A stretch of 64,000 nt of DNA. Origin: a virus. A program made the translations under genes and the position numbers. The stretch is from IMG/VR virus record IMGVR_UViG_3300045594_000099, positions 1 through 64,000 of that record; one strand, 5' to 3'. Below the pieces are notes generated by a model. That model was given only the letters and a program-made list of their open reading frames with translations. It searched no databases and was not told the DNA's origin. Positions 3,681-49,488 of this stretch are shown in pieces. Position 1 is the first letter of the stretch; every line of letters starts with the position of its first letter.

Positions 3681-3703
3681 TCTAGCTGTTTGGAGTCTCT
3701 ATC

Positions 3704-7345: not shown

Positions 7346-7358
7346 AAAGAACAATTTC

Positions 7359-8279: not shown

Positions 8280-8753
8280 ATGATTCCATACATTGAACTG
8301 ATTGGTCCAGACAGGTCTGGAAAGTCAACTATACTCAATTGTTTCAGAAAACGTCTTGAAAAAGACAAATTCTCTTTTGAGTTCATTCAAGACAGAGGCA
8401 TTGCAGATAGCGTTGTTCTTGATGCTTATTTCAATAGAACTAATGAAGATGTTCTTGATGAAAGACTAGCTTTTCTTGAATCTGCAAAACAGCATTACGA
8501 AATCATCTATGTGCATTCTAGCGCACCAATTCTTCAAAATAGAGTAGATGAAGAATTTGACAAAACTGATGCAGAAGACAGTTTCATGAATAAAGTCAAA
8601 GTTGATTCTAGCAAGCAATTAGAGCTTTACGACTTCTATTATGGCGTGTTCAAGTCTTTCATGCCATTTGTTTTTGAATATGATACTTCTTTGCATTCTA
8701 CCGATTTCATTGTAGACGAATTGCTTAAGAATAGAAAAGAAAGGGATTTGTAG
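8280..8753 (+). CDS. Deoxynucleoside monophosphate kinase (thymidylate-kinase-like P-loop)
   Basis: IELIGPDRSGKSTIL Walker A near N-terminus; QDRGIADSVV resembles the Tmk DR..S motif; 157 aa. Confidence 0.6.
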   Translation: MIPYIELIGPDRSGKSTILNCFRKRLEKDKFSFEFIQDRGIADSVVLDAYFNRTNEDVLDERLAFLESAKQHYEIIYVHSSAPILQNRVDEEFDKTDAEDSFMNKVKVDSSKQLELYDFYYGVFKSFMPFVFEYDTSLHSTDFIVDELLKNRKERDL

Positions 8754-11700: not shown

Positions 11701-13424
11701 ATAGATATGCACATACTTCATTGTCAAAAGCTATGAAAGATACACAGTCAAGAATTACTCATGAGCAAAGATGCAAGCATCAGCAAAATGTTCAGAAGAT
11801 TCATCCAGATAGATGCAAGAATGGGTATATTGCTGGGCAAAAATCATTGATGAGACTTAGGGAAGATGAAGAGTGGTCTAAAAGACATAATAAGAATACA
11901 TCGATTGGTATTCAAAAGTATTGGAATGGCATAGACGATAAAAAGCATGCAAGAAAATGGACTGGGTTCACTTTTTGGCAGACAATGTCTAAAGAAGAAC
12001 TCATGATATTCGAACAGTCTCGGGCCAAAAAGATGAAAGCTACATTAGCTAAAAAGACAGACGATCAGTGGCAAGAGATAACGGATAAAATTAGGAATAC
12101 TAAGCTTGAGCATGGATGTGTCAACTTCGGCAAGAAGACATTTTTGTCAGATGGAAGGCTTTGCGATTCTATGTTTGAAGCTAAGATTGGTGAGTATTTG
12201 ATTGACAGAGGTGTAAAGTTTAGTCTTCATAAACAACTCAGAGGGCAAGGCGACCATAAGCATGTATTCTGTGATTTTTATGCAAATGGCGTCTATATAG
12301 AAGCTGATGGTCTGTACAGAGGCGATGACTTCTTTAAGAATAAGAAGTATGGAGATGATTTGCCATTCTTAGTTTTGTATCCAAACGACTGGAAATATAA
12401 GATTGATGCTATGCTTATGGGAGATCACGTATCGAATGGCATCAAAGTCGTTTCTATTGAAAAGAAGCCTCTTCCTGGAAGATGGCATAAGACATATGGA
12501 ATGACATATGACATTGAGATGGATGACCATTATCCAGCAAACTTCATAGCAAATGGCATCGTATCGCACAATTCAATGTCATACGGCATGATAACAGCAT
12601 ACGAACAATATATGAAGGTCAGATGGCCATTGCAGTTCATATGCGCATCTTTGAATACAGATCCAGGTCAGATAGAGTTTCTGAAGTATGCTATAGTTCG
12701 TGGTTATAATGTCAAAACTCCCAATGTCAACAAATCAACAGACAAATATGTAGTAGACAACAATACTATATACATGCCAATGTGGTCTATAAAAGGTGTT
12801 GGTGGAAAAGCTGTTGAAGAGATTCTCAATAATGGTCCATATTCATCATATGATGACTTTCTAGACAAGACTACTGGAAGAGGTGGTCGAAAGAAGAATG
12901 TTCTTCAAAGTCTTATATCAATAGGCGCTTTTGATGGAGTAGATGAAAGAAGTAGATATGACCTGATGTGTGCATTTGCAGAATCTAAAGGACTAGAAAA
13001 ACCATATAAGAAGAATTTCGAATCTGACAGAATAATTGCTAAGATCGAGCAAGAACTTCTAGGTGTATCATTGTCATATGACGATGTTCTAGATAACAAA
13101 GACTGGCTGTCATCAGAATCTCCTCAATCAATGGCTGGTCTTATGAAGACTGATGTAGGTGAATCTACTAAGATTGCTGGCAAGATAACATCTACGAAGA
13201 CTAAGAATGCTAAGAATGGCTTGATGGCATGGGTTACGCTTAAGCTTGTGTCTCAAGAAGAAGTCAAGATAACAGTATTTGCAAATTCGTATTCTAGATT
13301 CAAAGACTATCTTTCTACTGGAGATTTAGTATCGATAATGTGCAAAAGAAGCTCGGATTTCAATGGCGCACCATCATTCATATGCAATTATGTGTTCAAC
13401 AAGTCTATTCAGCAAGACAAATAG
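8754..13424 (+). CDS. dnaE: DNA polymerase III alpha subunit (DnaE type) interrupted by an intein
   Basis: PHP motifs GLHQHLDSSCLDG and AITDHG; GVARGSSGASVVCYFLRITNIDPI..LYFERFL; PDIDLDF; GVHASGYVI; IKYDVLKL; GIFQLD; DRPGLV; YQEQIM; FNKSH/(intein)/SMSYGMITAY. Confidence 0.93.
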   Translation: MSYIGLHQHLDSSCLDGFQTRQELVSRAKSLGMNAVAITDHGTCAIHVKFAQECAKQSDDNLTIKPIFGMESYLVDDVHDIMTDRIAHTRAGKVKYNKETGEPELEKQRASDFNHCCLWAQNDKGLENLWTVSTLSYTEGFYRKPRIDFNMLKTYGEGLFVSDGCMLSRVSRCIANDDIKGAIAWEKKLIDAVGKENVLVEIHTWQFCDPKTEEQFNLNSIMTKTNKVKIEIAKELGLRTIAVNDAHYAKREDYRWHELVWQSTTGKGSDLNDDKTSGRGETAAWVMSEDECFYWLKKHGLDDEDIQTAIDNTQWVADHCNAKIKFGMVPPRYGDSKEDDDRLLEKLVLEGARERIPSVDQAQEYMAELKKELELIEKTDLSGYFLIVWDYVNFVLSDDEDGSKYGIVGKKASLLGVARGSSGASVVCYFLRITNIDPIKNSLYFERFLTAGRVVSSVNIKFEDGWKKFSPSEKISLSDGTSKDAWKLLYEEDDTEYGKEIDSSFDFKDCPDIDLDFEASVIPQVDAYLKKRWGEWNVCRIGTELQGKISTSVHDVFAIHGYSSSDIFNLNRKIAATGWDTGEYMELQTYEDFIECISKDEDLKKIVDETEYFKEAWNFGGRIRTYGVHASGYVISKKSLLGKMPLRVAQGILVTQFSHDQVASMGFIKYDVLKLSSLGTIREVYENVHGKLDPESIYADMQNDKLFDGAAIWKPTWDGDVLGIFQLDTPLGKTTATNAIVNSVSDAGMITAVDRPGLVRSGLIKDFYKVRKGEEGCPSYHPFTDSILEETSGFVVYQEQIMKIYSRLCNMNMEEADNVRKVFSKKQVTKVPAMKKLLYDVCLNDKNFIDSVPVKYSSPKECLDDLWVGISRTAEYSFNKSHCLDGHTLVKLDTGECIYMSELFKRYESGEELKIMSMMPDGKIASAKIHEVMKSGIKELLTITLANGALIRATPEHRFLTTRGYVAVKDFRDDEELIFDSKHRYAHTSLSKAMKDTQSRITHEQRCKHQQNVQKIHPDRCKNGYIAGQKSLMRLREDEEWSKRHNKNTSIGIQKYWNGIDDKKHARKWTGFTFWQTMSKEELMIFEQSRAKKMKATLAKKTDDQWQEITDKIRNTKLEHGCVNFGKKTFLSDGRLCDSMFEAKIGEYLIDRGVKFSLHKQLRGQGDHKHVFCDFYANGVYIEADGLYRGDDFFKNKKYGDDLPFLVLYPNDWKYKIDAMLMGDHVSNGIKVVSIEKKPLPGRWHKTYGMTYDIEMDDHYPANFIANGIVSHNSMSYGMITAYEQYMKVRWPLQFICASLNTDPGQIEFLKYAIVRGYNVKTPNVNKSTDKYVVDNNTIYMPMWSIKGVGGKAVEEILNNGPYSSYDDFLDKTTGRGGRKKNVLQSLISIGAFDGVDERSRYDLMCAFAESKGLEKPYKKNFESDRIIAKIEQELLGVSLSYDDVLDNKDWLSSESPQSMAGLMKTDVGESTKIAGKITSTKTKNAKNGLMAWVTLKLVSQEEVKITVFANSYSRFKDYLSTGDLVSIMCKRSSDFNGAPSFICNYVFNKSIQQDK
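11400..12572 (+). mobile_element. 391-aa intein in DnaE at the FNKSH site, with a non-LAGLIDADG (PD-(D/E)xK / DUF559-like) endonuclease insert
   Basis: Begins CLDGHTLVKL (Cys1 codon 11400-11402); block B ATPEHRF; blocks F/G TYDIEMDDHYPANFIANGIVSHN then Ser+1 (12573); central CDSMFEAKIGEYLIDRGVKF...FCDFYANGVYIEADG. Confidence 0.85.
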
Positions 13425-17150: not shown

Positions 17151-17224
17151 GCCTTTGTAATTCAACTGGATAGAATGCCCGTCTTCTAAACGGGATGTTG
17201 CGAGTCCGAGTCTCGCCAAAGGCA
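17151..17224 (+). tRNA. tRNA-Arg (anticodon UCU)
   Basis: Cloverleaf by hand: acceptor GCCTTTG/CAAAGGC, D stem ATTC/GAAT, anticodon stem CCCGT/ACGGG with loop CTTCTAA, T stem GCGAG/CTCGC with loop TCCGAGT, discriminator A; 74 nt. Confidence 0.85.
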
Positions 17225-17322
17225 CGCACAAAAAATGTAGAAAGGTGATTATGTAATGCTGGTAGTTTAACTCTCTTTTCTACCAGCACATACCAATATA
17301 TGCTGTTAGCTCAGAAGGTTAG

Positions 17323-19064: not shown

Positions 19065-19262
19065 AAGTTCTGTAGAATCTAGATCATTCTCAGATTTCGG
19101 TTCATTCACGAACATATAAGATGAGTTCATGCCAGTCTCTGCATCATAAGAATATTATGAATATAGTATTATATATTCAATTGATTAGCTATGGTCAGAG
19201 ATTGGCATTCTCATTATTTTTCAACTGATTCAGATTCACGTTGTAAGGCAAAAGAATACAAT

Positions 19263-20546
19263 ATGGTAACAGCTATCGATAAGCTTAAAGCTAGTCTTAA
19301 GTCTCAATTTGGGGATATATCTGCTATGTCTCCAAGTGAGATACCAAACAAGGGTGTTGTTTCTACAGGCTCATTAGGAATAGACTACATGGTCGGTTCT
19401 AAGCATGGTATGGGCGTGCCAAGAAACATTGTAGTAGAGCTAGGTGGAATGCCAGGCTCATCAAAGTCTTCGCTTTCATTTTCGATAATAGAGCATGTTC
19501 TTGAATTGGAGTTCTACAGAGCTTGCTTCAAGCGAAAAGTAGAGAAGCTAGTATCTCAAGGAAAATTCGAAAAAGGTGAATTAGACTGGTTCAACAAATT
19601 CTATGATGAGCAGATAGCAGACTTGCATGTATGGAATGAGCAAGAGAAGAATGATGCTGTAGATGCAGAGACATTGACAGATGAAGAGAAGCAGTCTGTC
19701 ATAGAGAATGACATGAGAAATGCTATCTATCTAGATGTCGAAGGCAGATTCGACAAGGAATGGGCGTCTCATTTCATCAAAGAAGAGTTCTTCAACAAGC
19801 TCATTCTTGTCTGGCCTGATACGGCAGAGCAAGCGACTGACATGTACGTAGAAGCTTTGCGAACTGGCACTATAGCGGTTGCAGTATTCGATTCCATAGG
19901 CGGAGCTCCATCTCAAAGGACATACTGGAAGTCAGCTACATCTGGAAATGTAGGTGGCAATGCATTAGCTATCACTAGATTCTCGCAATTCGCTCAGAAC
20001 ATGTCAAACAAGTATACATGTCTGACAATCGGAATCAACCAGGTCAGAGCAGACATGAGCGGATATCATCAGTACATAACTCCTGGTGGTCTTGGATGGC
20101 AGCACGCATGCTCTTTGAGAATCGAACTGAAGCGCAAGAACAAAGATGTCGTATATGATATCGAACCAGGTACAGTAGACTCACAATACATATGCGGATA
20201 CAAAGTAGCTGCAAGACTGCATAAGAATTCTATTGGCATGTCTAAGCAAGCTTGTGAGTTCTGGTTCTACACTAATGATTGCAGATATGGAAAAGCTGGC
20301 TTTGGCACTATAGAAGAGCTCATCAATCTTGCGACTCTATGTGGAGAGGTAGAAAAGGGTGCTGCTGGAGTGTATCGATCAGGATACTTCCCAGATGGCA
20401 AGATTCGTGGCTACGACAAGATGGTCAACTACATAAAGAACGATGAAGGCGTATACAATCAGCTATATGAAGACATGAAGTCTAGATTGATGGCTGGTGA
20501 CATACGAAATGCTGTCACAGAATTCAATGATGCTGACGAAGAATAA
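19263..20546 (+). CDS. recA: RecA-family recombinase with an approximately 80-aa insertion after the P-loop
   Basis: SQFGDISAM..VVSTGSLGIDYMVG..GVPRNIVVELGGMPGSSKSS matches the RecA N-terminus and Walker A; YLDVEGRFD; Walker B VAVFDSIGG; start taken at ATG 19263 (MVTAIDKL). Confidence 0.8.
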   Translation: MVTAIDKLKASLKSQFGDISAMSPSEIPNKGVVSTGSLGIDYMVGSKHGMGVPRNIVVELGGMPGSSKSSLSFSIIEHVLELEFYRACFKRKVEKLVSQGKFEKGELDWFNKFYDEQIADLHVWNEQEKNDAVDAETLTDEEKQSVIENDMRNAIYLDVEGRFDKEWASHFIKEEFFNKLILVWPDTAEQATDMYVEALRTGTIAVAVFDSIGGAPSQRTYWKSATSGNVGGNALAITRFSQFAQNMSNKYTCLTIGINQVRADMSGYHQYITPGGLGWQHACSLRIELKRKNKDVVYDIEPGTVDSQYICGYKVAARLHKNSIGMSKQACEFWFYTNDCRYGKAGFGTIEELINLATLCGEVEKGAAGVYRSGYFPDGKIRGYDKMVNYIKNDEGVYNQLYEDMKSRLMAGDIRNAVTEFNDADEE

Positions 20547-21147: not shown

Positions 21148-21704
21148 CAGATTCATTAGAGCTTGTATCTGCTGTTGCGCAGTCTAACAAAGAGAGACTT
21201 GCAAAGTCTAGCATATGTAGGATATGCTCTCTAGAAGTATCTGAAAGACGAGTCTTAGAGCAGCTTATAGCTTGTGGAGTGCCCAATACTGTAATCATAC
21301 ATATTGCGAGCCAGATGTTCAATATCGAGATCAATGGCTCTATTATAGCTAAGCACATCGATCATCTTCCTGCTAAGCTGTTCATGTACAAGGAGATAAT
21401 AGAGAGACGAGCTAAAGAAGCTGGCATATCGCCAGATGATACTGCTAGCAGACTTACTCCAGTCGCTTACATAGAGATGCTTCTCAATGATGCAGCTCAG
21501 ACACTTATTGACAATCCTAAAAGCACTAATGCATTTGTTGGGATGCAAGCTGCCAAGACTTTGATAGACATCGAAGGGAACAAGGCTTCTCAAGACGATG
21601 TCATGCTTTGGGTTTCTAAGTTCAGGCAATTGGTTGGTGCTATGAAGACTGTATGCTCGCAAGATCAGATAGACAAGATACTGAAAGTTGTAGAAGATGA
21701 GTGA
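21144..21704 (+). CDS. Hypothetical protein
   Basis: 186-aa ORF overlapping neighbours by 4 and 8 nt; CRIC pair and possible HTH, not assignable. Confidence 0.55.
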   Translation: MTDSLELVSAVAQSNKERLAKSSICRICSLEVSERRVLEQLIACGVPNTVIIHIASQMFNIEINGSIIAKHIDHLPAKLFMYKEIIERRAKEAGISPDDTASRLTPVAYIEMLLNDAAQTLIDNPKSTNAFVGMQAAKTLIDIEGNKASQDDVMLWVSKFRQLVGAMKTVCSQDQIDKILKVVEDE

Positions 21705-22002
21705 GTCTGATGTATCAAAAGAAGAAGCTGAGCAGAAGTTCGATGATTTCAGAAAGACAAAAGCTTTGCTTCCATGTCAGTATCTGCCATCTGCTTATTT
21801 CTACAGACGATACTGGATATGGTCTTCGCCTACTGATGTTGATGACATAAGAGTCGTAAAGAATGTTTGCGATACTTGTCCTCTTAAAGAAGAATGCAGG
21901 GAAGTCGGCAAAGACGAGCCTTATGGCATTTGGGGTAATGAATATAGAGAGCACTGGGCTGAAAGACGAGATCTTGATAAAGATAGAGAGCCTTATGCGT
22001 AG
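21697..22002 (+). CDS. WhiB-like (Wbl) Fe-S transcription factor
   Basis: Four Cys in Wbl spacing (LPCQY ... VCDTCPLKEEC) followed by YGIWGN, the G(V/I)WGG turn. Confidence 0.7.
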   Translation: MSESDVSKEEAEQKFDDFRKTKALLPCQYLPSAYFYRRYWIWSSPTDVDDIRVVKNVCDTCPLKEECREVGKDEPYGIWGNEYREHWAERRDLDKDREPYA

Positions 22003-22053: not shown

Positions 22054-22090
22054 AAAAATATTATAAAATACAAAAAAGAAAGGATTCATT

Positions 22091-22522
22091 TTGAGTAAGA
22101 ACAACAAAGACTTTCTAAGTAAGAAAGCTTCGCAATTTGATTGGGAAGATGTCCTCAATTCGCAAATGGCATTGCAATCTGCTTATCGTGTAGATTTGAA
22201 TGCTAAAGGCAAAGACAAATGCCGTCTGATAAAAGACATGGCTTTCTCATGCGAATCAGAACTTCATGAAATGTTGCAATGCGTTTCATGGAGAGACTGG
22301 TCTGATAGCGATGACATAGATGAAGATGGCGTAAAAGAAGAATTACGAGACTCTTTCCAATTCTTTGTCAACCTTATGCTCATAATGAAAATGTCGCCTG
22401 AAGAGCTATTTGAAAGAATCAAGTCCAAGCAGAATAAGAATTGGGACAGAATTTCTTCTAATTACAGTGAGCATATCAATTCTAAGGATTCTGATGGATC
22501 AGACTATAGTAATGCAATCTGA
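22091..22522 (+). CDS. All-alpha NTP pyrophosphohydrolase (dimeric dUTPase / MazG-like)
   Basis: aaagga-6 nt-TTG start; CESELHEMLQCVSWRDW...EELRDSFQFFVNLML matches the E..E...wK.W....EL.D..fF pattern of dUTPase_2/MazG folds. Confidence 0.45.
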   Translation: MSKNNKDFLSKKASQFDWEDVLNSQMALQSAYRVDLNAKGKDKCRLIKDMAFSCESELHEMLQCVSWRDWSDSDDIDEDGVKEELRDSFQFFVNLMLIMKMSPEELFERIKSKQNKNWDRISSNYSEHINSKDSDGSDYSNAI

Positions 22523-23285
22523 ACCTTCTATGTCTGATGAAGAAATGCGATATGACTTTCTTTCAGACAGAGATGTTCTTTATGTCTATTCTGTATATCC
22601 TGAATCTAAAAAGAAGTCATGGTGCCCGACTTGCAATGGTAGTGACGCTAATTGCGATCATGAATTGCAAAGGCAATTGTTCAAGCATTATGCAAATGCA
22701 GGCATAGGTCTTACATATCAACGGCTTTCATGGAAAGACTACAATGGGCCTGAAGATGTGAAGAAATTCTGTCAGATATATGCAAGTCAGTCTAAAGCTT
22801 TCAAAGAGAACAATGTCGGACTAATGCTTCTTGGCAATAATGGAACAGGCAAGACTACTGTAATGTCATTGCTATTGAAAGACTTGGTAAGACAAAGAGC
22901 TAAGTGCTTCTTCACAACGTATTCGAATCTAGTTCAAATGCTTGGTGGCTCGTTTTACGATGAAGATGCAAGACGACTTTATGCTGACAAGATTATCAAG
23001 TCTACTTTCTTGGCTATAGACGACATAGGCAAAGAGATGGCTAACAAGTTGACTGTAAATGCTATCGATAATGTTCTTAGACAAAGAGTGCAAGCTTCTA
23101 GACCTACTTTCCTTACATCGAACATGACTAGAGGTCAGATAATGAATGAGTATGGAAGATCTGCTTTCAGTCTGATAGCTGAGACCTCTAATGCATTCGA
23201 TTTTGACGGATACGATGTCAGACCAGATGTAAGAAAGCGAAAGCTTGAAGATGCAGCTAAGGGTATCATTCATCCCATCATTTGA
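22512..23285 (+). CDS. DnaC/IstB-like AAA+ helicase loader
   Basis: Walker A LLGNNGTGKTT; Walker B FLAIDDIGKE; sensor RPTFLTSNM; start taken at ATG 22512. Confidence 0.75.
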   Translation: MQSEPSMSDEEMRYDFLSDRDVLYVYSVYPESKKKSWCPTCNGSDANCDHELQRQLFKHYANAGIGLTYQRLSWKDYNGPEDVKKFCQIYASQSKAFKENNVGLMLLGNNGTGKTTVMSLLLKDLVRQRAKCFFTTYSNLVQMLGGSFYDEDARRLYADKIIKSTFLAIDDIGKEMANKLTVNAIDNVLRQRVQASRPTFLTSNMTRGQIMNEYGRSAFSLIAETSNAFDFDGYDVRPDVRKRKLEDAAKGIIHPII

Positions 23286-23304: not shown

Positions 23305-24597
23305 ATGGAAGAAGCAACTAAATTAGAAGACATGGCTGTCTACTTGATGACAGATCTGACTTCATTGAAGAGAATGTACTCTCTTGGTCTTAGAGAGAGT
23401 TATTTCGAAGAGATTCAGAACAAGAAAGCATTTGCATTCTCTGTAGAATACTGGCAAGGATCGAATCTTAAGAAAGCGCCTACTTGTAGTCTGCTTGAAA
23501 AGGAAGTCCCAAGTCTTCATGTGAAATCGACAGACGTATCTGCAACATACATTGTAGAAGCTCTTAAGAAACGGCTTATATCAAACAGGATGAAAAGAGC
23601 TTTGCTGGATTCAGCAGACTCTTTGAAAGAGCATCCAAAAGAAGCACTAGAAATTCTGTCTAATCAGCTATGGTCTATTTCGAAGCAAGCTAAAGACAGA
23701 AAGAATGTTTCAGAACTGTATGATACTGTAGAAAGTCGAAAAGAAAGATATCATAAACGCTCAGAAATGTCTAAGAATGGCATAATGGGCGCATCTATTG
23801 GTTTTCCTGAAATCGATCAAGTCACTATGGGTCTTGCAAATGGAGAGCTATGTACAATAGCAGCACCTACTAAGACTGGTAAGACTTGGATTGGTCTAAA
23901 GATTGTTGCAGAAGCTATGAAAGCTAAGAAGAGAGCAGTCTTCTTCACGCTTGAGCTTTCTGTAGCAGATATAGAAGATAGACTTGACGCTATTCTATCA
24001 GGTGTCTCATATGCAAGGCTTTCTACAGGTACTTTGTCTTCTATAGAAGTCGGAAAGCTGTCAAAGATTCAGCAGTCGTACGATTCATATGGACAAGTGC
24101 TGATTTCTAAGCCACGAATAGGTGAAAGAACAGTTCCAGACATGATGAAAGTAATACGAGATTTTGATGCGGAGTTAGTAGTCATAGATCAGCTTTCATT
24201 CATGGAAGCATCGAATCCTGGAACATCAAAGACAGAGAACGCATCTAGAATAATCGATGAGCTTAAGATGTCGGTATCTGAAGACGAAGACAGCATGATT
24301 CCAGTCTACTTGCTTTCTCAGATGAATAGAGCTGCATCTTTTACTGAAAATGGAAGAGGAAAGCTTACAAATATAGCTCTTACATCAAATATAGAGAATG
24401 CTTCTGATCTGATAATCGGTCTTGGTGCTACAAAAGAGCAAAGAATCAACAATACAATGGTCGTAGAAATCTTGGGTTCAAGAAGAACAAGTATGCGATC
24501 GTGGCTAATATATCGAAATCTTCAAGATAAGACAGACTTCCACGTCATAAAAGAAATGACTGACGATGAAGACGCAAGTGAAGAGGGAGAATCGTGA
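23305..24597 (+). CDS. dnaB: DnaB-family replicative helicase
   Basis: GFPEIDQVTMGLANGELCTIAAPTKTGKTWIGLKI; Walker B VVIDQLSFM; LLSQMNRA. Confidence 0.85.
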   Translation: MEEATKLEDMAVYLMTDLTSLKRMYSLGLRESYFEEIQNKKAFAFSVEYWQGSNLKKAPTCSLLEKEVPSLHVKSTDVSATYIVEALKKRLISNRMKRALLDSADSLKEHPKEALEILSNQLWSISKQAKDRKNVSELYDTVESRKERYHKRSEMSKNGIMGASIGFPEIDQVTMGLANGELCTIAAPTKTGKTWIGLKIVAEAMKAKKRAVFFTLELSVADIEDRLDAILSGVSYARLSTGTLSSIEVGKLSKIQQSYDSYGQVLISKPRIGERTVPDMMKVIRDFDAELVVIDQLSFMEASNPGTSKTENASRIIDELKMSVSEDEDSMIPVYLLSQMNRAASFTENGRGKLTNIALTSNIENASDLIIGLGATKEQRINNTMVVEILGSRRTSMRSWLIYRNLQDKTDFHVIKEMTDDEDASEEGES

Positions 24598-25643
24598 TGC
24601 AGTATGTTTCTGGAAGAGGACTTAGAATTGCTTTTGTAACGCATAAAGGCAATCTGAATGGAAGTCTGACATGGTTCAATTCTATGAAGGAGATAGAGTT
24701 TTTGAAGCAAGTATTCAAGGGCTCTGTGGTTGATGGCGTAAGCATGAAGCCAGATGCTAAAGATTTCAATACTACATTCAAGCAGGCGTCTAAAAGACGT
24801 TATGACCTGATCGTCATGAACATTCAGAAGAAGTATGCTTCTGAAAGAACGCATGCTGGCTTCAAAATGATGAATGACTTCATCAAGCAATCTGAAGCGC
24901 CTGTGCTAGCGCTTATAGATGATGTAGTGATAGCAGAATCGCCATCTACGAACATGTCCTCTTTCGACAACAAGATGGCAGTGCTAGGAATGAAGATAGA
25001 CAGCAAGAAGCTAAAAGACGCTGGATATCATAATGTCGTCATCTCAAACAGAATCAAAGGCATGTCTGTCATGCTGAAGTCAGATAGACGTTTCATGACT
25101 TCTGCTAAGCCTGTAGACTTCGCTTACATTGGAATGCTTCGCAACAAGAGACTTAGATTAGTAGTAGATGCTTTCAATGCTCTTTCGAAAGCAGGATATT
25201 CATGCAAATTCTATGGAGCTGATGCTATCTATGACATGGATTCGGAAGAATCTTCTAGCATTCTAGATTATGTTGAGTTTGAAGTGCTTGACAAAGTTGA
25301 TGCTGACAAAGTAGTGGACGTCATGTCTGAAGCTAGATACTCCATTCTTCCAAGATACGATTATGGAAAAGACATACTCTCAAATAGGATATACGAAGAT
25401 GATTCTGCTAATTGCTTGATGCTAGTTGATGAGCAATATGGCCTGCATGACTTGTTCGATAAAGAAGTGCGATATCAGAATGACAAGGATCTGATAGCTT
25501 TAGTCAAGCTGTTCGATGATCATCCAGAACTGCAGTCGTACATGCTTGACCAGCAGCATGTTAGCGTAGATAGAGAATATCATGCTTCCAGAGCAGAGCT
25601 AGAGCAAGCTTTGATAGATTCTGTAAAAGAGCTTCTGCGATGA
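24594..25643 (+). CDS. T4 beta-glucosyltransferase-like protein (candidate DNA hydroxymethyl-pyrimidine glycosyltransferase)
   Basis: 349 aa versus 351 aa for T4 Bgt as I remember it. Collinear blocks by eye: RIAFVTHKGNL / KIAIINMGNNV; YDLIVMN / YDRLIVVN; DFAYIGMLRNKRLR..CKFYG / DVIYGGSFRSGQRE..IEFFG; LSNRIYEDDSANCLMLVDEQYG / ITLRVWETMASDAVMLIDEEFD. Confidence 0.5.
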   Translation: MMQYVSGRGLRIAFVTHKGNLNGSLTWFNSMKEIEFLKQVFKGSVVDGVSMKPDAKDFNTTFKQASKRRYDLIVMNIQKKYASERTHAGFKMMNDFIKQSEAPVLALIDDVVIAESPSTNMSSFDNKMAVLGMKIDSKKLKDAGYHNVVISNRIKGMSVMLKSDRRFMTSAKPVDFAYIGMLRNKRLRLVVDAFNALSKAGYSCKFYGADAIYDMDSEESSSILDYVEFEVLDKVDADKVVDVMSEARYSILPRYDYGKDILSNRIYEDDSANCLMLVDEQYGLHDLFDKEVRYQNDKDLIALVKLFDDHPELQSYMLDQQHVSVDREYHASRAELEQALIDSVKELLR

Positions 25644-26557
25644 GCTTAGGAAGACTTTCTGCTATAGAGATAATCAGAAGATATCGTCCAGACAGCAGAA
25701 TCATAGTAAGCGGAAGCTGGATACGACATTCTTGCATAATCGATACGGTAGATCCGCATCACAATCACGGTGACAGAAATCCATCTGCAGGTCTGAATAG
25801 CCAATCTGGTGCTTATCTTTGCTTTGCATATTCTGCTCATGCTTTGTCATTCAACAAGCTGAAGCAGATAATGCATCTGCAGTATGACTTCGAGTCTGAA
25901 AGAAGAGAGCTGCCATCTGACTTCAAGAAAGCTATGGAGTCTAAAGTATCGAATGACGACAAGCATTTCATTGACTTAAGACCATACAAGCGAGTCAATC
26001 ATCAATACATGCTAGATAGGGGCTTTCTAGAGTCTACTCTTGATGCTGCAGACATAAGGTATGACGACATCAATGAAAGAATAGTCATACCAGTGTATGA
26101 AGATGGAATGTGCGTAGGATATCAAAGCAGAGCAATAAGAGATTCTCAGTTCCCAAGATACAAGAACAGCAAGGGCTTCGACAAGTCAGATCATGTCTAT
26201 TCGATATCTGCTTTAGACGAATCTATGCCATTGATCGTATTCGAGTCACCAATGTCTGTAATGCGAGCTTATGACTATGGCATGACTAATTGCATTGCGA
26301 CATTCGGAAGCAAGATATCAAGTACACAAGCATCATTCATCAATAAGTTCAGAGATGTATTGCTATGGTTCGATGGTGATGGTGCTGGTCAATGGGGAAT
26401 AAAGCAGGCAATCAAGAAGCTATCAGCTACTGACCTTAGGATAGTGGATTCGAAAGACCTTGGCACTAAAGACATCGCTGACATAAGTCAGAATGAAGCT
26501 ATAGTCAAGATAGTCTCAGCTAAGACTGCTTTAGAATACGCTATTGATTATATTTGA
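25640..26557 (+). CDS. dnaG: DnaG-type primase (TOPRIM)
   Basis: Zinc-binding-like SCIIDTVDPHHNHGDRNPSAGLN..YLCFAYSAH; RNA-pol core VIPVYEDGMCVGYQSRAI; TOPRIM LIVFESPMSVM and LWFDGDGAG. Confidence 0.8.
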   Translation: MSLGRLSAIEIIRRYRPDSRIIVSGSWIRHSCIIDTVDPHHNHGDRNPSAGLNSQSGAYLCFAYSAHALSFNKLKQIMHLQYDFESERRELPSDFKKAMESKVSNDDKHFIDLRPYKRVNHQYMLDRGFLESTLDAADIRYDDINERIVIPVYEDGMCVGYQSRAIRDSQFPRYKNSKGFDKSDHVYSISALDESMPLIVFESPMSVMRAYDYGMTNCIATFGSKISSTQASFINKFRDVLLWFDGDGAGQWGIKQAIKKLSATDLRIVDSKDLGTKDIADISQNEAIVKIVSAKTALEYAIDYI

Positions 26558-26749: not shown

Positions 26750-27688
26750 ATGTCAACTACGTTAAAAGATCTGCAAGCATTTATAGACGACAATCTTGAT
26801 AAAGTAATTCATAGAGGAATAGATTGCAAATATACTGACGACAAGCTGCAATTCAAAGACGATGAAAATCTGTACGATATTTCGCCTGTTGCAATATCAG
26901 AACTTTCTGCTATTCTGCATTTGCCAAACAAGTATATAGAATCTATCCCTTCAGATTTGCGTACGATGAACATCATGTATTTCCTGATGCGTTTCGAAGG
27001 CAATCTTACATTCTCTATCTCAGGCAATGCGATTTCAGAAGTCATTGAATCAGATAACATTCGTCCTGTCGACAGCATCATTTCAGAGCTTTCAGAAGTG
27101 TTTGATGCAAATGAAGTCAATGTCATTCAACCAGAGATTGACAACAAGCACATCTCAATGTGGATTTATTTTGCAGACGAAGTTGCTACTTCTAAGTTCG
27201 GTGCATTCAATCAAGGCTACAATCTTTATATTGGAACAGACAAGAAAGATTCTGTGTATTGCAATCCTATTCTTGTCAATCCACTTGAAGAAACAGCTAT
27301 TGAAGTATTGGTCGATGACGATGATGAAGTAGACAATTCGTCTATAACAGAAAAAATTGAATACGTCATGTTATTCAAGAATGTCTTTGATGCGCTTAAT
27401 CTAGCTTCTGAAAATAGAATAGAAGACATCAATGTATTCTTCAATATCATGTCTTCCGGTTTTCGTATGACTTCTAAAGCTAAGAAAGCTGTACTAGAAG
27501 AATTGCAATTGTCAGATGCTTCTACTATATCTGATGCAATAAAAGCTTCATTGTCTGCAGAGACTAGAATGAAGAAGCTTTCAGATGTCAAGTCTATCGC
27601 TACATTCATAGGAAAGTATTCTGAATTCAAGAACCCGAAATTCTGCTCTGAATGCGGACAGCCGATCATTGAGGATGTGAATCTTTGA
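26750..27688 (+). CDS. Hypothetical protein, possibly DUF932-like, with C-terminal zinc ribbon
   Basis: ISPVAISELSAILHLPNKYIESIPSDL resembles the DUF932 a..QL...lgiP..Y block; C-terminal FCSECGQPI. Confidence 0.35.
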   Translation: MSTTLKDLQAFIDDNLDKVIHRGIDCKYTDDKLQFKDDENLYDISPVAISELSAILHLPNKYIESIPSDLRTMNIMYFLMRFEGNLTFSISGNAISEVIESDNIRPVDSIISELSEVFDANEVNVIQPEIDNKHISMWIYFADEVATSKFGAFNQGYNLYIGTDKKDSVYCNPILVNPLEETAIEVLVDDDDEVDNSSITEKIEYVMLFKNVFDALNLASENRIEDINVFFNIMSSGFRMTSKAKKAVLEELQLSDASTISDAIKASLSAETRMKKLSDVKSIATFIGKYSEFKNPKFCSECGQPIIEDVNL

Positions 27689-28686
27689 AGCTAGCAATAC
27701 TGATTACAGAGAAAGACTCAGAAGCATCGCTTGTCAATATCGTCAATGATGCTATGCATGTCAACAACGCTAAGACATTCGTAGTAGATGACGGGTCAAG
27801 AATTCCAATTTCTATAGAAGGCAATAGCAAGCTAGCAGTTTTCAGACACGATAAGAACATTGGCTATGGAGCAGAAATGAACTTTCTGCTTGATTGCATA
27901 AAGTATGACGATTTCGATTATGTCATGTTTGCAGAAGCAGATGACAGAATAGACTATGTCAATCTAAACAAAGTCTTGCAAAAAGTCAGCAACTTGCCAT
28001 GCTACTATGACATGATCAAGTGCTCGTATTACAAGAGACAGACACCAGAAAGTGAGTTTTGCATTCCAGAATCTGAATTAGCTTTCTATGAAGATGGTCT
28101 TCTGAAGAACAAAGACATTCCTATGATGTTAGATCATCATAATGCTATCTGGTCTATTCTTTATTCTTCTGCATTTATAGAGAATCATAGTTTTGTAGAG
28201 GCTAAAGGTGCTGGATGGGTAGACATACCTTTTGCGTATGATACTTTGCTAGATGCTGATGCTGTATACAGAATTGCAACACCAATCTACAAGTATACAT
28301 TGCATAACGTCACTAATTCATCAGATGTTTTCGATGCATCTACTCCATTTGCAAGATTGCTAGATGTTCAGAAGATTTTGTTTGATGAAGGCATAGACAA
28401 CATTCCTGTAGAAGTTCTATGGTGCTATATTCATCAAATTCTGAAAATGATAGATCTTTGCTTCTATAACAAACGAAAGCTTTCTGAATATCAAACCAAC
28501 AGATTTGCTATCTATCAATGCATGAACTTCATATACAGCATCATGAATGACAGATCATTTGCTAGCATATTGCGTGTCTTCAAGAATGACAGAAGTCTTC
28601 TTGACAGTGTATCTTCAGAGCAGATAGCTATTTTAGACGATTTCAACAAGAACGGCAATATAGACAAATGGATAAGCAGTCTTTAA
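27685..28686 (+). CDS. Glycosyltransferase family 2 (soluble)
   Basis: LAILITEKDSEASLVNIV...TFVVDDGSRIP (GT-A DDGS); FAEADD (DxD-like); TTG start overlapping previous stop. Confidence 0.65.
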   Translation: MKLAILITEKDSEASLVNIVNDAMHVNNAKTFVVDDGSRIPISIEGNSKLAVFRHDKNIGYGAEMNFLLDCIKYDDFDYVMFAEADDRIDYVNLNKVLQKVSNLPCYYDMIKCSYYKRQTPESEFCIPESELAFYEDGLLKNKDIPMMLDHHNAIWSILYSSAFIENHSFVEAKGAGWVDIPFAYDTLLDADAVYRIATPIYKYTLHNVTNSSDVFDASTPFARLLDVQKILFDEGIDNIPVEVLWCYIHQILKMIDLCFYNKRKLSEYQTNRFAIYQCMNFIYSIMNDRSFASILRVFKNDRSLLDSVSSEQIAILDDFNKNGNIDKWISSL

Positions 28687-29876: not shown

Positions 29877-30425
29877 TTGCTTCTGTCAGATACTTCTATC
29901 AAAAGAATCAATGCTATTGAGCCATTCAATGAAGACAATTTGCAAGCAGCGTCATATGATTTGACATTAAGCGACGTATTCATTGTTACAGATGCAGAAA
30001 TATTATGTCCTGGAGATGCAAGTCTTACAAGGAAATGCTATTCTACTAAATTAGTAACGCATCAGTACAAGCTCATGCCAAACGAATTCATCTTGTCATC
30101 TACTATTGAGAAAGTAAGCATTCCCAATAACATCGGAGCAAGATTCGAAGGCAAATCGTCTCTTGGCCGCATCGGCCTAGCTACGCATATAACTGCTGGC
30201 TTCATTGACCCTGGCTTTGAAGGCAATATCACTCTTGAGATAAAGAATGAAGCATCGTATCCAATACTTCTCACTTGTGGGATGAAGATAGGACAGATAT
30301 GCTTCTACTATATGGATGAAGCTAGTTCTGAACCGTATGGAAGCACTAGCAAGTCGCATTATCAAAATCAGTTTTCAGCAACTAGTTCGTGGTACGTATC
30401 TAGTTTTACAAAGCAGCATAAGTAA
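29877..30425 (+). CDS. dcd: dCTP deaminase (Dcd family)
   Basis: MLLSDTSIKR..IEPFNEDNLQAASYDLTL; EGKSSLGRIGLATHITAGFIDPGFEGNITLEIKN. Confidence 0.9.
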   Translation: MLLSDTSIKRINAIEPFNEDNLQAASYDLTLSDVFIVTDAEILCPGDASLTRKCYSTKLVTHQYKLMPNEFILSSTIEKVSIPNNIGARFEGKSSLGRIGLATHITAGFIDPGFEGNITLEIKNEASYPILLTCGMKIGQICFYYMDEASSEPYGSTSKSHYQNQFSATSSWYVSSFTKQHK

Positions 30426-30470
30426 TATATAATTATATTAAATAGTTTTATTATGAATATGGAGAATAAT

Positions 30471-30944
30471 ATGAAGGTCTCAGAGGAATTCAGACAAGCT
30501 ATTGATAAGCCAGAAGGCAATATCAGAGTATATTTTGCTAATTCGTGGTTCAATGAAAATAAAGCAAAAGCTTCTGATTTAGGTTTCGATGTTCTAAAGA
30601 AGTTCGATGTGGAAGTATTCAATCCGCGTTTTGATTCTCCACAAATTGGAAAGAATCCAACAGAAGCTGAACGACAAGCTAATTTCGATGCAAATCTTTC
30701 TGCTATGCGAAGTTCAGATGTTCTTATCGCTTCTACAGAAGGACTTGATTCTGGCACTATCTGGGAATGCGGCTATGGTTCTGCTTTAGGAATTCCAACA
30801 TTTGGTTTTGCACCATTGCTTCCAGAAGGTGTGCCATTCAATCTAATGCTTGCACAATCTATGAAGCATATCTTCCTTTCAAGCGAAGCTCTTGCTTCTT
30901 ATCTTAAAGATGGCAAAGAGCCTGACAGGATTGGTGCTTGCTAA
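30471..30944 (+). CDS. Nucleoside 2-deoxyribosyltransferase-family protein (NDT / Rcl-like)
   Basis: RVYFANSWFNENKA (Y.AG..F motif) and LDSGTIWECGYGSALGIPTFGF (D.GT..E.G.A); start at ATG 30471 after ggagaataat, tracked ORF opens at 30453. Confidence 0.75.
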   Translation: MKVSEEFRQAIDKPEGNIRVYFANSWFNENKAKASDLGFDVLKKFDVEVFNPRFDSPQIGKNPTEAERQANFDANLSAMRSSDVLIASTEGLDSGTIWECGYGSALGIPTFGFAPLLPEGVPFNLMLAQSMKHIFLSSEALASYLKDGKEPDRIGAC

Positions 30945-31483
30945 TGTTGACTGATGAAGACATTGTAGATTCAGTAATCGATGCTGCGAATGAGATTAGT
31001 GGACAAGCTTATGTAGTCAGATACAATGGAAAGCCAACTTTGCATAGGCAGAATCTTTATGAGCATCATGGATCTGTAGCTCAGTTGCTGCTGTTGCTAT
31101 TCAAAGTCTATGATGTTCCAGAATTCGAGCAATTGAATGCTTTGAAACGTGCTTTGACGCATGATTTGCCAGAGATATGGCTTGCTGACATCCCATTCAA
31201 CACTCATGTAGACAATCCGCATTTTTCTGAAGCATATGACTATTCTGAGCAGAAGATACTGAATAGCAAGCTAGAAAAGTTCGACTATTCAGTATCCAAG
31301 TATGGCAGAGTGTGGCATTTAGTGAAAGCAGCAGATTGCTTAGATGTAGTCCTGTTCTGCAAGCAAGAGTTCAATCTTGGCAACAAGTCAGATACAGTCA
31401 TGTCTATGTATAAGCAGGATGTAGAGCTAGCTGCAAAGCATTTAAGAGAATTGGATAGCAATTATGCAAGATTTGAAAAGTAA
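30938..31483 (+). CDS. HD-domain 5'-deoxynucleotidase (YfbR-like)
   Basis: RQNLYEHHGSVAQLLLLL ... ALKRALTHDLPEIWLADIP parallels YfbR E-H-s..vA ... HDasE..tGDlP. Confidence 0.7.
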   Translation: MLMLTDEDIVDSVIDAANEISGQAYVVRYNGKPTLHRQNLYEHHGSVAQLLLLLFKVYDVPEFEQLNALKRALTHDLPEIWLADIPFNTHVDNPHFSEAYDYSEQKILNSKLEKFDYSVSKYGRVWHLVKAADCLDVVLFCKQEFNLGNKSDTVMSMYKQDVELAAKHLRELDSNYARFEK

Positions 31484-32525: not shown

Positions 32526-32737
32526 TGCTTGTAGAGATTGGCGACATGAAACTTACTCCGAAATTCCAGTGCTTTGATTCGTATGGCCCATTCGTTCTGA
32601 AAAGAGATGCTATAGAGGCATGCGCCAATCTTACTTCTGATTTAGCTGTGGCGTATGAGCAATTGCAAGCATACAAGTTGCAGAATGACATTCTTGTTGC
32701 TAGGCTTTCACGTTTAGAAAGAAATATGAATCTATGA
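32525..32737 (+). CDS. Hypothetical small protein (GTG start)
   Basis: 70-aa ORF filling the gap to the terminase gene; overlaps it by ATGA. Confidence 0.45.
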   Translation: MLVEIGDMKLTPKFQCFDSYGPFVLKRDAIEACANLTSDLAVAYEQLQAYKLQNDILVARLSRLERNMNL

Positions 32738-34341
32738 AAAGCAAGATGCTTGATTCTTTACTGAATGCTGTCACACCAGAATCTATAATAGCTAACTCGT
32801 TCAAGAGAAGCACTTCTCCATGGAATGACGACCCTATGGAGTTCTTCGAATCAGACAAGTTCTGCAATATGAAGCTGTATCCTAGACAGAGACTGATGCT
32901 TAAGCTATGGAATCTGCAATTAGATGACCTGTCTGATTATGAGAAGAAGACTCTTGACTCATGGAGAGCTTCTTTCTCAAATGATCAGTATACGATAGGC
33001 GTCAATGAGGACATATATGAAAGAATAGCCATTCTGAAGAAGAACGGCTACTTGTGGTTCAATACGATCATTCCGATTCTTGGAAGACGAGCATCCAAGA
33101 CTATGATGTCTGGTGCTCAGCTATGCCTTCAAGATGCTACTTTGATGTGGGATGGCATACCATCTGTCACTGTAGATGATGCTGGCGAGGGTGAAGACAA
33201 AGATGACTCTACATATTCGTTTGTAATTGCTAAGACGCAAGGCCAGGCTAAAGAGACTACGTTCGCAGCTCACTATAATGCAGTAATGCATTGCAAATGG
33301 CTAAAGCAATACATTGAAAGAGCTACTCCGTTCGAGATAAGATTTCAGACGTTCGATGACAGAATGCAATCTATCGATCTAGTAAGTCAGGGAATGCCGC
33401 TTGAAAAGCCAATCTCATCATTTGTAGCAAGGCCTGTGTCATCCGATTCCGATTCTATACGTGGTAGAGCTTGCGTATCTCCAGATTCGTATGTGCTTGA
33501 CTATCAAAGACATTGGGTTCAGCTTAGCACTATTCATCCTGGAAGCAGAATACTTGCTTTTCATGAGCATGAACCGTATTCATTGACAGAAGCTGTAGTT
33601 CTGAACATGTGGAAGACGAAGAAGGAATGCGTAAGACTGCATGTCTCTAAGAATGTCAATATGCCGTTAGTCTGCTCCATAGACCATAAGGTTCAGATGA
33701 ACGACTGGTCTTGGAAAGAAGCAGGAGCTCTGTCTAAAGGTGACATAGTTCGTACAGCTGACAGCACTAAGACTGTTCTTGAAGTCGAACATGTCGGAGA
33801 GCAAGATCTGATAGACATGACTACTTCTTCGCATACGTATCTTGCTAACAACATTCGATCTCACAACTGCGTATCGCTTGCTTATGACGAGATCTTCTTT
33901 GCTAATGCTGGGCAGTCGTCAAGATCTGGCGACAGAGGCGTCAAAGCAATGCAGCCAGCTTTGCAGCAGTTCGGCAAATACAAGCTGATGCTTTTCCCAT
34001 CTTCTCCATGGACTAGAAATGGAGTAGTGTACGACAAGTACTTGCAAGGTAGAGAGCATGTCAAAGAGTACATTGAGAAATACGGTCTATCAAGCAAAGA
34101 GAAAGATGCTCTAGACAAAGACATTGAGCATACTAAGAAAGCTATCATAACAGATCCCACTATTTTTGTTGCTCAGTTAGAGTCTTGGAATCTTTATGAA
34201 GACTTCGACAGTCAAGCATATGTTCCGACATACTATTCTGGCTTCAAAGCGAAGAAGCTTGTCATAGATGACAATGGCCATAAGACTGAAATAGTCGCCG
34301 ATACTAATGCTGTTGAAGGAGATTATGTCTATGTAGAATGA
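32734..34341 (+). CDS. Terminase large subunit, ATPase half only, interrupted by a mini-intein
   Basis: Walker A-like ILGRRASKTMMSG; SIRGRA/(intein)/CVSLAYDEIFF (Walker B); FPSSPW; ends soon after ESWNLYED with no nuclease domain. Confidence 0.8.
   Translation: MKSKMLDSLLNAVTPESIIANSFKRSTSPWNDDPMEFFESDKFCNMKLYPRQRLMLKLWNLQLDDLSDYEKKTLDSWRASFSNDQYTIGVNEDIYERIAILKKNGYLWFNTIIPILGRRASKTMMSGAQLCLQDATLMWDGIPSVTVDDAGEGEDKDDSTYSFVIAKTQGQAKETTFAAHYNAVMHCKWLKQYIERATPFEIRFQTFDDRMQSIDLVSQGMPLEKPISSFVARPVSSDSDSIRGRACVSPDSYVLDYQRHWVQLSTIHPGSRILAFHEHEPYSLTEAVVLNMWKTKKECVRLHVSKNVNMPLVCSIDHKVQMNDWSWKEAGALSKGDIVRTADSTKTVLEVEHVGEQDLIDMTTSSHTYLANNIRSHNCVSLAYDEIFFANAGQSSRSGDRGVKAMQPALQQFGKYKLMLFPSSPWTRNGVVYDKYLQGREHVKEYIEKYGLSSKEKDALDKDIEHTKKAIITDPTIFVAQLESWNLYEDFDSQAYVPTYYSGFKAKKLVIDDNGHKTEIVADTNAVEGDYVYVE
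33472..33867 (+). mobile_element. 132-aa mini-intein (no endonuclease domain) in the terminase ATPase just before Walker B
   Basis: Cys1 CVSPDSYVL (33472); block B SIDHK; block F/G DLIDMTTSSHTYLANNIRSHN followed by Cys+1 (33868). Confidence 0.8.
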
Positions 34342-38375: not shown

Positions 38376-38861
38376 ATGAACTGCTCGCATCTACAAAAGA
38401 AAGAGACATGGCTAATGAAAGACAAAGAGACGCTTGCTTATTCGATATTCATAGCTTTAGAGCAAGCAGACATACTTGATCCTGCTCATGAATATTCGCC
38501 TTCGTGGCTGTATGACGAAGCGAAGCCTGTCATAATGAAGTGCTTGAATCAGTACTATGAAGATTCAAATAGCTCTGACATTACTGACAAAGACATAGAA
38601 TCTGTAGATTCTGCAAAGCAATTGCTGTCAGATGCGATAGATACTGTCACTGTCGACAGGAAAGAGGACTATGGAGAAGCTGAAGACTTCTTCAGTGATA
38701 TCGCTGGACTGTGGTCTGTCATTCTGCATGAAGACGTCTCAAGCAAAGAAGTAGCATTGTGCATGATAGCTTTGAAGATTGCTAGATGCAATAATGGCAA
38801 CTACAAAAGAGACAGTTGGCTTGATATTGCCGGATATGCAGCTTTGGGAAGTCAGTTGTAG
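38376..38861 (+). CDS. Hypothetical protein, DUF6378-like C-terminal half
   Basis: RKEDYGEAEDFFSDIAGLWSVIL...VALCMIALKIARC...RDSWLDIAGYAALG recalls a phage domain of unknown function (R..YG...f..iA..W....K..R...Ds..D.aGYa). Confidence 0.35.
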   Translation: MNCSHLQKKETWLMKDKETLAYSIFIALEQADILDPAHEYSPSWLYDEAKPVIMKCLNQYYEDSNSSDITDKDIESVDSAKQLLSDAIDTVTVDRKEDYGEAEDFFSDIAGLWSVILHEDVSSKEVALCMIALKIARCNNGNYKRDSWLDIAGYAALGSQL

Positions 38862-42997: not shown

Positions 42998-43075
42998 CTA
43001 ATTGCTTTTGATCTGACAATGCGACATTCTGGTTATGCAATGGAAACGTCAAGACAAAATGAAGAAGGAGACGAA

Positions 43076-49483: not shown

Positions 49484-49488
49484 ATAGA

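Follow-up and report, generated by a model that had tools for sequence, protein, structure and literature searches.

A predicted glycosyltransferase encoded between phage DnaB and DnaG genes is a distant homologue of T4 beta-glucosyltransferase

Introduction

Sugar-decorated DNA is a main means by which phages escape restriction enzymes and CRISPR nucleases, and the beta-glucosyltransferase of phage T4 (Bgt) is a standard reagent for mapping 5-hydroxymethylcytosine. Acceptor and DNA recognition are carried in this enzyme by the N-domain. Pfam family PF13524 is the nucleotide-sugar-binding half of GT-B glycosyltransferases, a general C-domain family matched by many enzymes. From the crystal structures of Morera and Lariviere we take Arg191, Arg195, Arg269 and Glu272 of T4 Bgt to bind the diphosphate and the ribose of uridine diphosphate (UDP). 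Here, we analyse 64,000 nucleotides (nt) of viral DNA (positions 1 to 64,000 of IMG/VR record IMGVR_UViG_3300045594_000099; this whole stretch is hereafter the window), in which the gene of a predicted glycosyltransferase, hereafter the window GT, lies between those of a DnaB-type helicase and a DnaG-type primase. A preliminary description, made from the sequence alone, had likened this gene to that of T4 Bgt. The reference throughout is T4 Bgt itself (CAZy family GT63; N-domain of family PF09198 and PF13524-like C-domain; PDB entries 1BGT, 1QKJ, 1J39 and 1NZD), with the gene taken from NC_000866.

Bgt-like phage DNA glycosyltransferases are a kind already known, since metagenomic GT-B DNA glycosyltransferases (10.1101/2023.12.21.572611) and a glycosylated 5-hydroxycytosine made through a homologue of the thymidylate synthase ThyA (PMC13326640) have been reported. 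The metagenomic enzymes resemble T4 Bgt, have a proposed equivalent of Asp100 and often adjoin helicase or polymerase genes and secondary glycosyltransferases (10.1101/2023.12.21.572611). In T4 Bgt, Asp100 serves as the catalytic base (10.1101/2023.12.21.572611; title of the D100A PDB entry 1NZD). Among the metagenomic enzymes, families GT53, GT66 and GT94 of the 5mYOX/ThyS clusters, which we compare by description only, are like the window GT in being GT-B enzymes of uncultured phages, in the Asp and in their neighbours. They are defined, however, by an adjacent TET-like dioxygenase and methyltransferase, or by a thymidylate-synthase homologue, none of which we found for the window GT. Two distant metagenomic members of the Bgt family, P0006 and P0051, are also encoded within replication and nucleotide operons, P0006 overlapping PolA by 4 nt. 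Unlike the window GT, each has genes for a ThyA homologue and for a dUTPase or dCMP deaminase as direct neighbours, and their N-domains are recognised by PF09198. Placement in a replication unit has a precedent in T4, where bgt lies among genes 61, 41, uvsX, 42 and 43. The window GT differs from these in that its lineage is extremely divergent and rare, that the N-domain model fails to detect it, that it is set in a bacterial-type replisome and that no known acceptor-making enzyme was found.

Results and Discussion

A gene that overlaps both helicase and primase

The window GT and its immediate neighbours are as follows.

23305..24597, + strand: DnaB-type replicative helicase (Pfam DnaB_C 3e-26, phrog_19 1e-50)
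24583..24589, + strand: Shine-Dalgarno-like GAGGGAG, read from the sequence, within the 3' end of dnaB and 7 nt before ATG 24597
24597..25643, + strand (alternative start GTG 24594): Bgt-like GT-B glycosyltransferase of 348 aa (PF13524, profile match to T4 Bgt, hhalign, invariant residues)
25640..26557, + strand: DnaG-type primase (Toprim_2, Toprim_4, DNAG_N; phrog_47 8e-42)

The open reading frame (ORF) starts at 24594 (GTG) or 24597 (ATG), ends at 25643 on the + strand and encodes 349 or 348 aa. The dnaB stop codon TGA (24595-24597) is overlapped by the GTG and also by the ATG, in the arrangement TGATG; the letters of this junction are GAGGGAGAATCGTGATGCAG. Downstream, the ATG of the primase (25640) overlaps the stop codon TGA of the window GT (25641-25643) in an ATGA, within CTGCGATGAGC. 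Direct reading of these positions bears out what the preliminary description had said of the ORF at 24594-25643, namely its GTGATG overlap with the helicase, its junction with the primase and a length like that of T4 Bgt (351 aa). The ATG at 24597 is the likelier start because of the GAGGGAG ahead of it and of the equivalent ATG start in locus L002, which encodes an 85% identical homologue. There, the ATG lies in a TAATG overlap behind an identical GAGGGAG, and the overlap with the primase is also ATGA. The ratio of nonsynonymous to synonymous substitution rates is 0.16-0.17 against two relatives, and the ORF is therefore a real gene under purifying selection.

Similarity to the T4 Bgt family

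Searched against all 177,635 PDB sequences, the profile of the window GT family matched T4 Bgt (E 8.4e-6) and its mutant (1.4e-5) and no other GT-B enzyme at E<=10. The direct comparison of single sequences is fainter: overall identity to T4 Bgt is 16-19%, and pairwise BLASTP places residues 255-339 on Bgt 260-345 with 24% identity (E 3e-5 for a single comparison). Residues 200-332 match PF13524 (Glyco_trans_1_2) with 32.7 bits (gathering cut-off 25; E 8e-8), a family that T4 Bgt and P0006 match too. Aligned by hhalign with 26 diverse Bgt-family sequences, the family gave a probability of 95.5% and an E-value of 1.5e-8 over 306 collinear columns. With corrected full-length ORFs for the family these values became 97.6% and 3e-12 over 303 columns, and with two bridging sequences removed the E-value was still 2.5e-11. 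The best of 20 column-shuffled controls reached 0.077. In the reciprocal direction, a hidden Markov model (HMM) of the Bgt family run on the six-frame translation of the window matched only the window GT (42.7 bits, E 2e-12). The window GT profile, in turn, recovered P0006 among 1.84 billion representatives at E 1.5e-5, the closest Bgt-family sequence that it found; this protein is 27% identical to T4 Bgt and matches PF09198 at 2e-18.

The full-length collinear relationship to the T4 Bgt family (GT63/PF09198) is significant, with a signal that comes mainly from the C-domain (alone E 2.3e-12). These comparisons establish the gene as a true, if distant, homologue of that of T4 Bgt, and its predicted nucleotide-sugar-binding C-domain is specifically Bgt-like. 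The preliminary description was thus right to place a Bgt-like gene between dnaB and dnaG, and the significant profile similarity on which it had made this reading depend is found both in the PDB profile search and in hhalign.

Catalytic and UDP-binding residues

Eleven positions are invariant in the Bgt-family alignment. The hhalign alignment maps them onto the window GT as follows.

T4 Bgt N70, window GT K79: different
T4 Bgt D100, window GT D109: identical
T4 Bgt G188, window GT G179: identical
T4 Bgt R191, window GT R182: identical
T4 Bgt G214, window GT G207: identical
T4 Bgt T267, window GT S262: conservative change
T4 Bgt R269, window GT R264: identical
T4 Bgt E272, window GT E267: identical
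T4 Bgt D283, window GT D278: identical
T4 Bgt D287, window GT G282: different
T4 Bgt Y299, window GT Y293: identical

When all 48 sequences were aligned independently with MAFFT, seven columns came out invariant: D109, G179, R182, G207, R264, E267 and Y293. D109, at the position of the catalytic base Asp100, follows the fourth strand of the N-domain and is invariant in all four members of the window GT family. Among the UDP ligands, R182, R264 and E267 do not vary in either family. Two of the similarity blocks singled out in the preliminary description contain these arginines. The block NRIYED/LRVWET was recovered by BLASTP, hhalign and hmmsearch. The block YIGMLRNKR/YGGSFRSGQ(R) also holds, with R182 on R191, but its second Arg is displaced by one position: opposite Q194 stands R185, and R195 falls on L186, which lies between R185 and R187. 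Arg195 is not invariant even within the Bgt family.

Compared with T4 Bgt, the window GT is hence alike in being a GT-B protein of about 350 aa that shares some 300 collinear columns and keeps the equivalents of D100, R191, R269, E272, G188, G214, D283 and Y299, and its gene is likewise embedded among replication genes. It differs in its low identity, in an N-domain negative for PF09198, in the changes at N70 and D287 and in the shift of Arg195 by one position. We read it as a putatively active inverting GT-B enzyme that has a common ancestor with the T4 DNA beta-glucosyltransferase family.

Structure models

The protein, of about 350 aa, has a predicted two-domain GT-B architecture. An AlphaFold2 model on the merged alignment obtained a predicted local distance difference test score (pLDDT) of 82.8 and a predicted template-modelling score (pTM) of 0.84. 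In Foldseek its top six PDB matches are all T4 Bgt (1QKJ, E 2.7e-13, template-modelling (TM) score 0.75), and the next GT-B enzyme comes at E 4e-8 and TM 0.5. The structural neighbours after Bgt include tetrahydrobiopterin glucosyltransferases, BshA and SenB, i.e. GT-B enzymes that act on small molecules. In BFVD the best match is a 351-aa protein, followed by phage proteins of which some are named DNA beta- or alpha-glucosyltransferase; the top matches also include glycosyltransferases of Bacillus phage SP-15.

This resemblance is partly circular, because 44 of the 48 rows of the merged alignment are Bgt-family sequences. A model made from the family's own four sequences had a pLDDT of 60 and only generic GT-B matches (TM around 0.3), and was too poor for use. 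The structural likeness to T4 Bgt that the preliminary description had proposed to look for is therefore seen in the merged-alignment model but not in the model free of Bgt sequences. The predicted fold is consistent with a relationship to Bgt, and is not independent of the alignment.

A very rare family

The window GT family is very rare. Neither megablast of the helicase-GT-primase region nor tblastn of the protein found a match among 50,697 phage records. A word-indexed search of 5.8 billion proteins returned only three clusters of homologues, 95, 85 and 44% identical. When 1.84 billion representatives were searched exhaustively with the profile, just two true matches, both marginal, were gained, one of them P0006; P0004 and P0007, from this second search, were rejected as repeat-protein artefacts. 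Single-sequence phmmer against the PDB returned nothing, NCBIfam had no match, and a PHROGs match to 'endonuclease' (E 0.0099) was treated as noise. Public gene calls of the homologues start too late, by 29 codons in P0002 (319 aa) and by 14 codons in P0003 (318 aa). The full ORFs, at 7043..8089 in L002 (348 aa) and at 2937..3935 in the more distant locus L003 (332 aa), keep the first beta strand (LRIAFV / MRFCFV).

The window itself is about 95% identical in DNA to IMGVR_UViG_3300044557_000185 (108,378 bp), which is circularly permuted relative to it. The window phage thus has a genome of about 108 kb, which is probably a circle or has terminal redundancy. The homology of the window GT extends the Bgt family well beyond T4-like phages, to a phage of this size that has a DnaB/DnaG/Pol III alpha replisome.

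The replication unit

The window is phage-like, has about 40% guanine plus cytosine (GC) and carries essentially all its genes on the + strand. Around the helicase, window GT and primase genes we find the following.

22091..22522, + strand: all-alpha NTP pyrophosphatase (Pfam dUTPase_2 6e-7), first gene of the putative unit
22530..23285, + strand: DnaC/IstB-like helicase loader (Pfam IstB_IS21 2e-10), its start inferred from the 251-aa homologue in L002
26750..27688, + strand: conserved 312-aa protein with a C-terminal CxxC, no family match, found after the primase in three of three loci
27685..28686, + strand: GT-A family 2 glycosyltransferase, GT2 (Pfam Glycos_transf_2 5e-5, 23.6 bits against a cut-off of 23.3)

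The product of the first gene has local BLASTP similarity to the T4 gp56 dCTPase/dUTPase (1e-6 over 49 aa). The GT2 matches an NCBIfam glycosyltransferase model at 4.5e-7, far under its cut-off, and has a counterpart with PF00535 in L003; it is a candidate second sugar-adding enzyme. The gene order dUTPase_2-like, DnaC-like, DnaB, window GT, DnaG, 312-aa protein, GT2 and a 159-aa protein is kept in L002 and in L003, and in the latter, where the glycosyltransferase is 44% identical, spacers of 10 nt and 8 nt take the place of the overlaps.

The window GT would be made together with the replisome, since its gene belongs to a series, from the dUTPase_2-like protein through DnaC and DnaB to DnaG, in which neighbours overlap or have only short gaps between them. 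The best promoter-like hexamers occur in the sole intergenic gaps (22025-22069; 26692-26720, an 11/12 site; 29173-29201). They are suggestive of two transcription units, dUTPase_2-DnaC-DnaB-GT-DnaG and 312aa-GT2-159aa; this reading is only suggestive because such sites are not enriched overall. The preliminary description had gone further and spoken of DNA modification coupled to replication. The place of the gene in a DnaB-DnaG unit agrees with this, but the coupling amounts to co-expression only, because overlapping frames do not show physical or kinetic coupling; neither mechanistic coupling nor the DNA acceptor is established by them.

A probable DNA glycosyltransferase

With a probability of roughly 55%, we take the window GT to be a DNA glycosyltransferase of the inverting Bgt type, divergent in sequence, that is produced alongside the replisome and decorates a hydroxyl-bearing base of new phage DNA. 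A UDP-hexose would be taken from the host pool early in infection, and its sugar moved by direct displacement, in a beta linkage, onto the hydroxyl-bearing base in newly made phage duplex DNA. By analogy with T4 Bgt, the base would probably be flipped into the inter-domain cleft. The adjacent GT2 may then extend the sugar, and so may a tandem pair of GT25-like genes upstream of Pol III alpha, whose Pfam matches are below cut-off. The modification would protect phage DNA from restriction and CRISPR nucleases. If the enzyme acts on DNA, the failure to find a known hydroxymethylase or dioxygenase points to a new acceptor base or a new route to one, and the enzyme could prove a helpful tool through a novel specificity for sugar or base.

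DNA is the likely acceptor, but is unproven because of the weak N-domain, of a GT4-like part, of the dominance of Bgt in the alignment behind the structure model and of the lack of an acceptor-making enzyme among those we saw. These points weigh against the reading just given, as do the replacement of N70 by K79 and of D287 by G282, the circularity of the model and the generic result of the four-sequence one. The N-domain alone aligns with that of Bgt in hhalign with a probability of 21% (P 0.001), a weak result, over a collinear stretch (9-113 with 1-104) that includes D109/D100. PF09198 (T4-Gluco-transf), which models only the N-domain of T4 Bgt (residues 1-167), was not detected in the window GT by Pfam hmmscan at E<=1; T4 Bgt scores 325 bits with it and the distant member P0006 scores 67 bits. 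The acceptor domain has diverged too far for the family model to detect it. Three of the four members of the window GT family have a basic N-domain (net charge +8 to +11), which favours a DNA acceptor. Net charge and isoelectric point (pI) were dropped as a test of DNA binding, being uninformative: the overall pI of the window GT, 5.9, is within the Bgt-family range of 4.9-9.4.

The GT4-like part consists of residues 168-259, the first half of the nucleotide-sugar domain, which match P0005, a cellular GT4 enzyme (Glycos_transf_1) from a bacterial polysaccharide gene cluster, at E 2.7e-9 (5.8e-6 in the exhaustive search), no worse than they match Bgt. The likeness is restricted to these residues and ends at 259, ahead of the motif R264-x-x-E267. 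P0005 gives no match when searched with the profile of the Bgt family (E 0.35), and the GT4 family model PF00534 has no match in the window GT at E<=1 in Pfam.

Candidate suppliers of the acceptor base

In all the Bgt-family contexts that we examined, a ThyA homologue adjoins the glycosyltransferase (gp42 in T4, and those beside P0006 and P0051). The window phage departs from this rule, and this too argues against a DNA acceptor. We found no ThyA homologue in the window by tblastn and with a ThyA HMM in six frames (best E 0.15), and none at E<0.1 in 68 kb of the ~95% identical 108-kb relative that cover the genome outside the window. An acceptor supply of the gp42 type was therefore not found, and the phage further differs from T4 in a replisome of DnaB, DnaG and Pol III alpha instead of the T4 type. 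Nor did Pfam, PHROGs and NCBIfam reveal a TET/JBP or other oxygenase in the window ORFs scanned, a search that does not extend to the ~44 kb of the genome outside the window. Sixteen unannotated ORFs, concatenated, matched nothing in the PDB.

The sole candidate found for an enzyme acting at C5 of pyrimidines is the following.

2727..3680: divergent, flavin-type ThyX-like protein (matches Pfam Thy1 at 2e-9 and NCBIfam thyX with 25.9 bits, cut-off 87.9)

In its small clade the canonical RHR...SxRY is replaced by R-x-x...CTGD (R-N-R...C-T-G-D in this protein), and CTGD is invariant in seven ThyX-like homologues, including that of Geobacillus phage GR1. The protein is unlikely to be a thymidylate synthase of the ordinary kind. 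Its product could be, in place of dTMP, a pyrimidine nucleotide with a 5-hydroxymethyl or another oxygenated group. A role as hydroxymethylase is speculation, because homologues in other phages have no consistent glycosyltransferase partner, Geobacillus phage GR1 being one exception. A full scheme, in which DNA is glycosylated by the Bgt-like enzyme, the sugar is extended by the GT2 and possibly by the GT25-like proteins, and the acceptor is made without ThyA or TET/JBP, with the ThyX-like protein as candidate, is in our view a long shot. If the acceptor base were 5-hydroxymethyluracil, the phage, whose host is probably actinobacterial, would have DNA resembling that with base J.

Geobacillus phage GR1 (L004), otherwise unrelated to the window phage, shares with it the genes of the nucleoside 2-deoxyribosyltransferase (NDT)-like, HD/YfbR-like, ThyX-like and Pol III alpha proteins. 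The GR1 block also holds a glycosyltransferase of its own.

Other possible acceptors

Alternative acceptors have to be weighed against further genes of the window.

6374..7345 and 7308..8216: two tandem GT25-like paralogues (weak; E 6e-4 and 7e-4, below cut-off; sequences clearly similar)
8280..8753: weak P-loop kinase with a faint thymidylate-kinase-like match, after the GT25-like pair and directly upstream of Pol III alpha
8754..13424: Pol III alpha (DnaE-type) with an intein (Pfam Intein_splicing, aa 894-1273, 45 bits, above its cut-off)
21697..22002: WhiB-like transcription factor (Pfam 1.4e-6, above cut-off)
29877..30425: dCTP-deaminase-like protein
30453..30944: nucleoside 2-deoxyribosyltransferase-like protein
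30938..31483: HD/YfbR-like 5'-nucleotidase
41570..42997: GT2 in the structural half (Pfam 1e-14, phrog_22973 2e-32)
43019..43486: pentapeptide-repeat protein (Pfam 1e-30), after the GT2 at 41570..42997
49480..49920: trimeric dUTPase

Some actinobacteriophages glycosylate their capsid and tail proteins. The closest homologues of the window DnaB (about 33% identical) are from Rhodococcus, Gordonia and Mycobacterium phages, and together with the WhiB-like gene they hint at an actinobacterial host despite the 40% GC. The window GT could thus be a Bgt-related GT-B enzyme with another kind of acceptor, e.g. virion proteins, a glycopolymer of the host envelope or another phage protein, its position reflecting early expression only. 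We hold this to be unlikely, though far from negligible. The phage encodes at least two other supported glycosyltransferases (the GT2 downstream of the primase and that of the structural half) besides the two weaker GT25-like ones. These count against DNA as the target, since with so many glycosyltransferases the phage may glycosylate something else, and virion glycosylation by phage glycosyltransferases has been discussed for mycobacteriophages (PMC11256854). An N-domain that is by itself not recognisably Bgt-like and has no PF09198, the strong local likeness to P0005 and the failure to find a base-hydroxylating enzyme in the window or ThyA in the related genome all fit such an acceptor. So does the metagenomic survey, in which a base-modification enzyme was missing from the neighbourhood in about 65% of the glycosyltransferase contigs, for which action on DNA was considered less probable (10.1101/2023.12.21.572611). 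Yet, the only sequence match among solved structures is a DNA enzyme, T4 Bgt. The window GT also has a Bgt-type R-[IV]-[WY]-E helix, preceded by a long loop that is likewise of the Bgt type, and the GT4 likeness stops short of this motif, at 259. Moreover, the gene stays between DnaB and DnaG even in the relative at 44% identity, whereas glycosyltransferases of envelope or virion usually sit with structural or lysogenic-conversion genes. Were the acceptor not DNA after all, the Bgt scaffold would have been reused for another one. As a separate observation, the GT2 and pentapeptide-repeat pair within the structural half may indicate glycosylation of the virion or of the host surface.

The enzyme might also act before polymerisation, on a free nucleotide or another small molecule of the pool, alongside the genes that remodel this pool. 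The first gene of the unit encodes a gp56-like NTP pyrophosphatase, dCTP-deaminase-like, NDT-like, HD 5'-nucleotidase, trimeric dUTPase, weak P-loop kinase and ThyX-like genes are present, and small-molecule GT-B enzymes are among the structural neighbours that follow Bgt. We find this improbable: in the literature examined, characterised phage base glycosylations take place on DNA after replication, the polymerase would need to accept a bulky glycosylated dNTP, and a supply of dTTP for a phage of 40% GC explains the pool genes equally well. For the same reason we did not rely on these genes as evidence of base replacement. Least probable is that the similarity to Bgt reflects generic GT-B convergence or chance, with no specific relationship to DNA glucosyltransferases. 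The 16-19% identity, the empty single-sequence phmmer search of the PDB and the generality of PF13524 as a GT-B C-domain family would fit it. But the profile search returned Bgt alone among the hundreds of GT-B chains in the PDB, the hhalign E-value of 3e-12 compares with 0.077 or more in shuffles, the seven columns invariant in both families include the catalytic Asp and UDP ligands, and the reciprocal HMM match bears the relationship out.

Other features of the window

The remaining genes identified in the window are listed below.

186..2021: NAD-dependent ligase
3704..5194: SNF2 helicase
17151..17225: tRNA-Arg(TCT), single, in the replication module
19191..20546: RecA-like protein
32734..34341: large terminase
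38376..38861: DUF6378 protein (Pfam 8e-28), after the terminase

Immediately ahead of the ligase, and well away from the terminase at 32734, there is a portal-like gene (phrog_2833 6e-42).

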